A stretch of 64,000 nucleotides of DNA from Escherichia coli (GTDB lineage Bacteria; Pseudomonadota; Gammaproteobacteria; Enterobacterales; Enterobacteriaceae): NCBI RefSeq assembly GCF_003018255.1, contig NZ_CP027440.1. The stretch is one strand, 5' to 3'. Below the pieces are notes generated by a model. It was not told the origin of the DNA and ran no database searches. It saw nothing but the letters and a program-made list of their open reading frames with translations. Positions 41,302 to 41,956 of this stretch are shown here, one piece after another (positions within the stretch are counted from its first letter, which is position 1; every line of letters starts with the position of its first letter). A program made the position numbers and the translations under genes.

Positions 41302-41709
41302 TTATCTTTGCGTCTCTTGTTGCAACAATATCCGCCGTAAATCCCGCCATTCGGCTTCGTCCATGCTGTCGGCTGCCAGCCATAAATGTTGCCGTTTACC
41401 GCTGTCAGAACGTAAACGCAGCATCATGCCGCTCTTAATCATCCACGGCGCTTTGACGATGCTCCACTCCTGCCCTTGCCAGCGCAAACGCCCGTCCATC
41501 AACAGGCGAATTTCCCCCTGGCGAGCATTAATGCGCCGCTGGCTGCGAACGCAATCAAACACCACCAGCGAAAGTAACACCATCCATAACGGGGTGTAAC
41601 TGAGCGGCCAGGGCATGAGTAAAATAACAGCGGCAACCAGCCCGTGGATCAGCAAGGAAAGCCACTGTGCGCGCCAGGAGACGCGCAGATCAGATTGCCA
41701 CAGGACCAC
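41302..41709 (-). CDS. cptA: inner-membrane protein, CptA toxin of the CptAB pair
   Basis: 135 aa; two hydrophobic segments; overlaps the upstream sdhE/ygfY by 20 nt. Confidence 0.85.
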
Positions 41710-41956
41710 GTTCCCGGTTCCGTGTCTGGATGAGTCGGACCATCATTTCCAGTTCTGCATCGGCCGGTTTACCGTGGTTCATCAGCCAGTTAAACAGATC
41801 GGGATCGTCACACTCCAGCAGACGAATAAAGATGCGTTTTTCGTCATCGCTTAAGCTGTCGTACTCATGTTCGAAAAACGGCATGATTGAAATATCGAGT
41901 TCGCGCATACCACGGCGGCATGCCCAATGAATGCGGGCTTTGTTGTTAATGTCCAT
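41690..41956 (-). CDS. sdhE: FAD assembly factor SdhE (flavinylation factor; CptB antitoxin)
   Basis: 88 aa; conserved RGxxE motif (RRGMRELD). Confidence 0.9.

Follow-up and report, generated by a model that had tools for sequence, protein, structure and literature searches.

Introduction

SdhE belongs to the SdhE/Sdh5/SDHAF2 family and would act as a cytoplasmic flavin adenine dinucleotide (FAD) assembly factor that promotes the covalent flavinylation of SdhA and FrdA. An Escherichia coli mutant with a deletion of its gene, also named ygfY, shows a loss of succinate dehydrogenase (SDH) activity and of growth on succinate (PMC5293155). In Serratia, sdhE and ygfX are reported to be co-transcribed, and the SdhE and YgfX proteins interact (PMC5042078, PMC3985639). 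The same pair has been published as the toxin-antitoxin (TA) system CptA-CptB, in which YgfX is the toxin and SdhE is the antitoxin; the toxin label derives from a single study that used overexpression, and work in Serratia and in Shewanella did not reproduce it. Here, we analyze the sdhE-ygfX locus in a 64,000-nucleotide (nt) stretch of the E. coli contig NZ_CP027440.1 (RefSeq assembly GCF_003018255.1), which is referred to as the window.

The reference type IV TA system is CbtA-CbeA (YeeV-YeeU), which is prophage-borne and patchily distributed. Similar to sdhE-ygfX, it has two small proteins per operon, and its toxin is said to target FtsZ and MreB (PMC8621075). By description, sdhE-ygfX is set apart from CbtA-CbeA as a core, syntenic and essentially non-mobile locus whose 'antitoxin' is a metabolic assembly factor. 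In a type IV system, the antitoxin acts on the target of the toxin, and toxin and antitoxin do not bind each other, which the SdhE-YgfX interaction in Serratia would contradict. Coupled overlapping gene pairs, with the NTGA (spacing of -4) or TGATG (spacing of -1) junction, resemble sdhE-ygfX in that the genes are co-directional and in one operon, the downstream start lies inside the upstream end and the downstream ribosome-binding site (RBS) is weak. However, the sdhE-ygfX spacing is -20. Bacterial membrane-anchored pleckstrin homology (PH)-like proteins (bPH proteins) combine a transmembrane hairpin, a small β-sandwich and a C-terminal α-helix, as is also predicted for YgfX. The hairpin precedes the whole domain in bPH proteins, whereas it appears to be inserted after the first β-strand (β1) in YgfX.

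The SdhE of the window shows no difference from its family: it carries the RGxxE motif and matches the family equivalog over its full length. Its last six codons also serve as the start of ygfX and lie beyond the Sdh5 domain, whose Pfam match stops at residue 79; in PDB 6b58, the SdhE construct ends at residue 84. YgfX is likewise the same protein as the CptA/YgfX family (PF07254, formerly DUF1434), with two transmembrane helices and a position downstream of sdhE. The region is very likely the chromosomal sdhE-ygfX (cptB-cptA) bicistronic operon, which encodes SdhE and a conserved membrane partner, YgfX.

Results

Identity of sdhE and ygfX

The open reading frame (ORF) listing and translation place both genes on the minus strand (Table 1), which the first-pass annotation of the window had left unstated. 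RefSeq names them 'FAD assembly factor SdhE' and 'protein YgfX' with identical ends in its annotation of a genome that shares 100% identity with the window across a 1,051-nt query (window positions 41200-42250). The locus is present in 5425 of the 5426 complete E. coli genomes at ≥95% identity, almost always at one place per genome.

SdhE matches the Pfam family Sdh5 (PF03937; E = 5e-26; 90.8 bits against a cutoff of 27; residues 7-79) and the NCBIfam equivalog NF008130, 'FAD assembly factor SdhE' (198.4 bits against a cutoff of 120; residues 1-88 of 88). It also aligns over nearly its full length, with E down to 8e-59, to the solved E. coli chains 1x6i, 6c12 and 6b58 in the PDB, the latter two being complexes with SdhA and FrdA, respectively. 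Across 23 paired homologues, the RGxxE motif shows no variation at R15, G16, M17 or E19. YgfX matches the Pfam family Cpta_toxin (PF07254; E = 1e-49; 168.5 bits against a cutoff of 27.3) over profile positions 1-132 of 133, and a PDB sequence search found no relative of it. The Pfam matches show that the two ORFs did not arise by chance. The first-pass annotation had proposed the identities of both genes, the RGxxE motif, the two-helix membrane topology of YgfX and an overlap of 20 nt, all of which are borne out by these matches, the RefSeq gene ends and the structural analysis below.

Table 1. Features of the sdhE-ygfX locus and of the remainder of the window (strand: -, minus; +, plus).
Feature	Position	Strand	Description or basis
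sdhE (ygfY/cptB) coding sequence	41690..41956	-	ATG start, 88 aa, TGA stop
ygfX (cptA) coding sequence	41302..41709	-	GTG start, 135 aa, TAA stop; inner-membrane protein
RGxxE motif of SdhE, R15-G16-M17-R18-E19	41900..41914	-	translation
Dual-coding overlap GTGGTCCTGTGGCAATCTGA, 20 nt	41690..41709	-	ygfX GTG (41707-41709) to sdhE TGA (41690-41692)
sdhE codons 78-82 (ACA CGG AAC CGG GAA), candidate embedded ribosome-binding/re-initiation region	41711..41725	-	Shine-Dalgarno-like GGAA/GGGAA
YgfX β1, residues 2-8, mostly encoded in the overlap	41686..41706	-	AlphaFold2/DSSP
YgfX transmembrane helix 1, residues about 12-31	41617..41676	-	hydropathy and AlphaFold2
YgfX transmembrane helix 2, hydrophobic part about 36-54, helix to 62	41548..41604	-	hydropathy and AlphaFold2
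YgfX soluble part, residues 65-134, six β-strands and C-terminal helix	41308..41517	-	AlphaFold2
Intergenic region, 242 nt, common to divergent sdhE-ygfX and ygfZ; presumed promoter region	41957..42198		gene layout
Stable hairpin within the 39 nt that separate the convergent genes fldB (end at 41262) and ygfX (end at 41302)	41269..41298		folding
xdhB/xdhC overlap, 4 nt	4556-4559	same-strand	
ygfM/xdhD overlap, 4 nt	22204-22207	same-strand	
ygfT/ygfS overlap, 1 nt	29900	same-strand	
6S/SsrS RNA	55848-56031	+	Rfam gathering score, 139.8 bits
Sib antitoxin RNA	56680-56830	+	Rfam gathering score, 136.5 bits
tRNA, annotated tRNA-Gly	56-126	-	Rfam gathering score

The 20-nt overlap and its conservation

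The overlap runs from the GTG start of ygfX to the TGA stop of sdhE and exceeds every other same-strand overlap annotated in the first 50 kb of the window; these others are of common short types and measure 4, 4 and 1 nt. At the junction, sdhE reads CGG GAA CGT GGT CCT GTG GCA ATC TGA and ygfX reads GTG GTC CTG TGG CAA TCT GAT in the +1 frame relative to sdhE, with the first base of the UGA stop of sdhE 17 nt downstream of the GTG. The SdhE tail (R)GPVAI with its stop and the YgfX N-terminus M-V-L-W-Q-S-(D) are both encoded here. The first seven YgfX residues, which form β1, are therefore specified by the same stretch as the final six sense codons of sdhE. The overlap is 20 nt only if the GTG at 41709 is the true start. 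Several lines support this GTG as the predicted start: no other in-frame start lies between the preceding stop codon and codon 19, position 1 of the PF07254 profile aligns to YgfX residue 2, a family alignment that reaches down to 22% identity retains the N-terminal peptide M-V-L-W-Q-x-x-L-R-x-S, and the N-terminus is modeled as a β-strand.

The first-pass annotation had proposed conservation of the overlap across genomes as a check. A species scan with one genome per species, which used patterns from a 6-sequence YgfX alignment, covered the Enterobacteriaceae. At 80/80 species loci, the overlap is 20 nt long, ygfX starts with GTG and sdhE stops with TGA. More distant loci were obtained by separate look-ups of divergent YgfX family representatives. 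The overlap is also 20 nt in Edwardsiella (L083; its YgfX 90%-identity cluster is mostly E. tarda), Mixta theicola (L085), Enterobacteriaceae bacterium LUAb1 (L086), Plesiomonas (L095) and three further loci (L082, L087 and L084, the last with an ATG start). It measures 26 nt in Pantoea (L093), where the GTG lies 6 nt further upstream, 19 nt in L089 and 14 nt in L088. The overlap sequence differs among the distant loci (e.g., GTGGCCCCATGGTGCTGTAA and ATGTTGCCTCTACACTGTGA) and the length is mostly retained, which suggests that the geometry itself matters. In Shewanella, the sdhE-ygfX junction has a 37-bp spacer and no overlap (PMC8621075).

ygfX lies directly downstream of sdhE in all 80 Enterobacteriaceae loci. 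Among 13 diverse loci, the same holds for 10 but not for L090/L091 and L094. The gene order ygfZ-sdhE-ygfX-fldB-xerD-dsbC is kept in the Enterobacterales loci L082, L083, L085, L086, L087 and L093.

A separate observation concerns an entry titled Chryseobacterium sp. 18061 (CACSKA010000005.1; L066), which contains an Enterobacteriaceae-type sdhE-ygfX with 75% identity to E. coli YgfX and an identical overlap. This Bacteroidota-named record is probably a mislabelled or contaminated assembly.

Sequence constraint and the ygfX initiation region

Nucleotide diversity was analyzed in 79 Enterobacteriaceae sequences. It is 0.014 in the overlap, compared with 0.42 at the third codon positions of sdhE and likewise 0.42 at those of ygfX immediately downstream. 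Low diversity is expected in the overlap, because each of its sites occupies the first or second position of a codon in one frame or the other. Constraint is also seen upstream of the ygfX GTG. sdhE codons 78-82, which belonged to no search pattern, have the lowest synonymous diversity of the 78 five-codon windows of sdhE (0.086 against a mean of 0.42), and the rare arginine codon CGG, which occurs twice among them, is retained in 79/79 and 78/79 species. This constraint points to a nucleotide-level function, most simply a putative translation-initiation region of ygfX.

The Shine-Dalgarno (SD)-like GGGAA of this region lies 2 nt upstream of the GTG and forms an anti-SD duplex with a free energy of -4.3 kcal/mol, a score that is equaled or exceeded at 24% of the positions tested across the sdhE-ygfX coding span, which was taken from 20 nt into sdhE up to the ygfX end. 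No SD-like sequence was found upstream of ygfX in the more distant homologues, including Edwardsiella and Plesiomonas with the 20-nt geometry. sdhE itself has an SD-like AGGAAG just upstream of its ATG. ygfX thus has no strong independent initiation site, given its GTG start, weak SD and 2-nt spacer.

Predicted structure of YgfX

An AlphaFold2 (AF2) model of YgfX was built from 40 homologues, and the secondary structure was assigned by DSSP. The model has a mean predicted local distance difference test (pLDDT) score of 95.5 and a predicted template-modeling (pTM) score of 0.78. The order of elements is β1 (residues 2-8), a helix at 12-31, a helix at 36-62, six β-strands and a C-terminal helix; Kyte-Doolittle windows exceed 1.6 at residues 13-38 and 36-54. 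β1 and the soluble part, which make up the cytoplasmic portion of this inner-membrane protein, are confidently modeled as a PH-like β-sandwich, with the two-helix membrane hairpin between β1 and β2. The YgfX strand that is encoded in the overlap is structurally required in the model, whereas the SdhE tail encoded there lies outside the Sdh5 domain and looks dispensable. No match of YgfX to the PH or bPH families of Pfam was found even at E up to 10, and no paper naming both ygfX and pleckstrin was found in the open-access literature.

Distribution on mobile elements

The locus is found in 12 of 72,556 plasmid records, at least 7 of which are 0.69-5.4 Mb, far above the typical plasmid size, and possibly chromosomal. 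It is found in 2 of 50,697 phage-collection records, and PADLOC defence models gave no match. The accessory, patchy or mobile distribution that is usual for TA modules, although not strictly defining, is not seen for sdhE-ygfX.

Among the PLSDB matches, four 'plasmids' with ygfX (H11-H13 and H18) are 4.8-5.4 Mb and may be chromosomes, which inflates the counts of plasmid-borne cptA.

Flanking regions and other features of the window

A sigma-70 consensus scan gave no site in the 242-nt intergenic region upstream of sdhE. Downstream, the 58-nt segment that contains the fldB-ygfX hairpin (41258-41315) folds at -19.7 kcal/mol (z = -4.1) on the plus strand and -17.5 kcal/mol (z = -3.7) on the minus strand. 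A U-rich tail follows the hairpin on the plus strand only and runs into the 3´ end of ygfX. The hairpin is likely the fldB terminator; it is possibly bidirectional and may also form the 3´ end of the sdhE-ygfX mRNA. A consensus terminator scan missed this hairpin, and its sole match lies inside ygfX at a chance frequency.

Elsewhere in the window, an exact match to the release factor 2 programmed +1 frameshift site, AGGGGGTATCTTTGAC, is located at 37090-37105 on the minus strand within prfB (36070-37168). It consists of an SD-like element followed by CUU UGA C, and RefSeq annotates prfB as joined with the remark 'programmed frameshift'. The RNA genes of the window are listed in Table 1; Sib RNAs are the antitoxins of the type I Sib/Ibs TA loci.

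Discussion

Translation of ygfX and its coupling to sdhE

Translation of ygfX is probably low because of its weak, badly spaced SD and non-ATG start. It most likely relies on ribosomes that have translated sdhE and terminate where it ends, either by re-initiation after short back-scanning or by exposure of the RBS. The synthesis of YgfX would thereby be tied to that of SdhE without an equimolar output. Coupling without an SD and by ribosome scanning is documented in a 2025 review (PMC12548453), and a literature search for ygfX with coupling terms found no paper mentioning ygfX. The first-pass annotation had called the genes translationally coupled with stoichiometric expression. Coupling is plausible from the co-directional geometry, the weak ygfX start and the synonymous constraint upstream of it, although it is deduced from the layout of the genes, the spacing is -20 and the junction has no supported RNA structure. 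The stoichiometric part is unsupported: the GTG start and weak SD suggest that the output of YgfX is, if anything, below that of SdhE.

Several observations speak against the reading of the locus as a coupled operon for SdhE and its membrane partner. The overlap sequence is invariant but for one site in the 80 Enterobacteriaceae loci, an invariance that is inflated by ascertainment within this family, given that one of the two scan patterns was the YgfX N-terminal peptide. Coupling efficiency falls with distance, and the -4 and -1 spacings dominate (PMC12548453); the -20 spacing of sdhE-ygfX is atypical for coupled pairs. The RNA fold of the junction is not significant in the single sequence (z = -1.07), and a conserved structure is unsupported by a 21-sequence consensus of -5.9 kcal/mol with almost no covariation. 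At two places, ygfX adjoins ygfZ without sdhE or an SdhE-like remnant at the locus: in Candidatus Symbiodolus clandestinus, which has a 1.5-Mb chromosome (L090/L091; gene at 2001-2444), and in L094 (gene at 1136-1579). With two lineages that lack an adjacent sdhE, the function of YgfX may not strictly depend on SdhE, and a reduced-genome symbiont with ygfX and no sdhE at the locus fits neither an obligate TA pair nor a strictly SdhE-dependent role. An interaction between YgfY and YgfX of Shewanella was undetected in a two-hybrid assay (PMC8621075). An AF2 model of SdhE-(GS)15-YgfX from a 23-sequence genome-paired alignment, a crude test whose negative outcome is uninformative, shows folded domains with a pTM of 0.45 and no confident docking. 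Finally, inhibition of E. coli growth by CptA and its relief by CptB are attributed to Masuda et al. (2012), as cited in PMC8621075 and PMC3985639.

It is possible, although somewhat unlikely, that ygfX is translated independently and the overlap is a frozen accident. ygfX would then initiate de novo from a weak RBS embedded in sdhE, and the overlap would persist only because indels or substitutions in the dual-coding stretch harm either protein. The codon positions of the overlap are sufficient on their own to account for its diversity of 0.014, de novo initiation could make use of the constrained GGAA/GGGAA stretch, the spacing differs greatly from the favored values, and Shewanella has a spacer in place of the overlap. 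In contrast, the SD-like element is weak and lies close to the GTG, Edwardsiella, Plesiomonas and further homologues lack it but retain the 20-nt geometry, and the overlap length is retained despite the diverging sequence. Coupled translation is preferred. Unmasking of the ygfX start by RNA structure was considered separately and rejected as unsupported, as no significant or covarying junction structure was found.

The toxin-antitoxin label

Under the TA interpretation, polymerization of FtsZ and MreB is blocked by the membrane toxin CptA (YgfX), CptB (SdhE) is its type IV antitoxin, and the overlap would ensure that the antitoxin is made earlier than the toxin and in excess over it. The Pfam title of PF07254, 'Membrane-bound toxin component of toxin-antitoxin system', and the antitoxin-first order with overlapping ORFs, as in many TA operons, agree with this interpretation, as do the growth effects cited above. 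However, the locus is core in E. coli and syntenic across the Enterobacterales, and it is nearly absent from plasmids and phages. The E. coli ygfY deletion was made and profiled, and its phenotype is a metabolic SDH defect (PMC5293155). In Serratia, there is no TA phenotype, yet the proteins interact, which conflicts with the type IV definition (PMC3985639). In Shewanella, there is neither toxicity nor rescue, and the ygfY deletion could be made (PMC8621075). SdhE also has a structurally established, unrelated function. A genuine type IV TA system is thus improbable, and the toxin behavior reported in E. coli would reflect overexpression instead of an addiction or defence module.

sdhE-ygfX behaves as a core, syntenic and non-mobile housekeeping module of doubtful TA status, for which the TA label is a contested annotation. 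With these properties and the conflicts in the literature, the locus is therefore filed as SdhE with a conserved membrane partner. The TA-like module named in the first-pass annotation is accurate as a published designation, CptA/CptB, and is contested as biology by the Serratia and Shewanella papers and by the distribution of the locus.

Alternative starts and fusions

An internal start of ygfX, at TTG 19 (41655) or ATG 32 (41616), would leave no overlap and make the annotated GTG an artefact. Some orthologue database entries are 111-125 aa and begin internally, and several representative YgfX matches begin at about residue 28-32. However, residues 1-31 are conserved in the family (W4, L8, R9 and S11), the PF07254 profile begins at residue 2, and an internal start would remove β1 and transmembrane helix 1 from the high-confidence model. 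An aligned GTG or ATG is present in 80/80 close loci and 9/10 distant loci, the tenth being Pantoea with its more upstream GTG. An internal start is accordingly very improbable, and the GTG is retained as the predicted start. A programmed +1 frameshift in the overlap that yields an SdhE-YgfX fusion protein is rejected as next to inconceivable: fused ORFs of 166-217 aa with both Pfam domains occur in metagenome assemblies (P0003, P0004, P0006, P0007, P0012 and P0021), but they are singletons or near-singletons, their junctions vary (SdhE residues about 28, 48, 60, 73, 84 and 86) in the pattern of random indels or assembly errors, and no slippery motif or stimulatory structure was found at the junction.

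As an observation on the databases, NCBI records annotate ygfX as 111, 113, 115, 125, 133 or 140 aa across closely related Pantoea and Edwardsiella strains; start calling for ygfX is inconsistent across RefSeq and GenBank.

Implications for YgfX and the family

The genes, the overlap and the TA claim are already present in databases and papers, and the finding is in this respect correct but ordinary. The analysis adds the conservation of the -20 geometry across the Enterobacterales despite divergence of the overlap sequence, the synonymous constraint upstream of the ygfX GTG, the predicted PH-like fold of YgfX with its first strand encoded in the overlap, and the behavior of the locus, which is that of housekeeping genes rather than of a mobile TA module. 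The labels 'Toxin CptA / antitoxin CptB' enter TA censuses of E. coli and other species (e.g., PMC10790755) despite the weak evidence for a TA function, which is a problem of annotation.

From the published interaction data in Serratia, YgfX would serve SdhE as a partner or docking site at the membrane. A more specific proposal, which is tentative and as a whole rather unlikely, is that YgfX is a non-toxin, membrane-anchored 'split' PH-like adaptor with its hairpin in the β1-β2 loop, whose synthesis is hard-wired to that of SdhE by SD-poor termination and re-initiation at the -20 spacing and which holds SdhE at the inner membrane. If this proposal is true, the coupling would be between the flavinylation of SdhA and FrdA and the assembly of these subunits on their SdhCD and FrdCD anchors.

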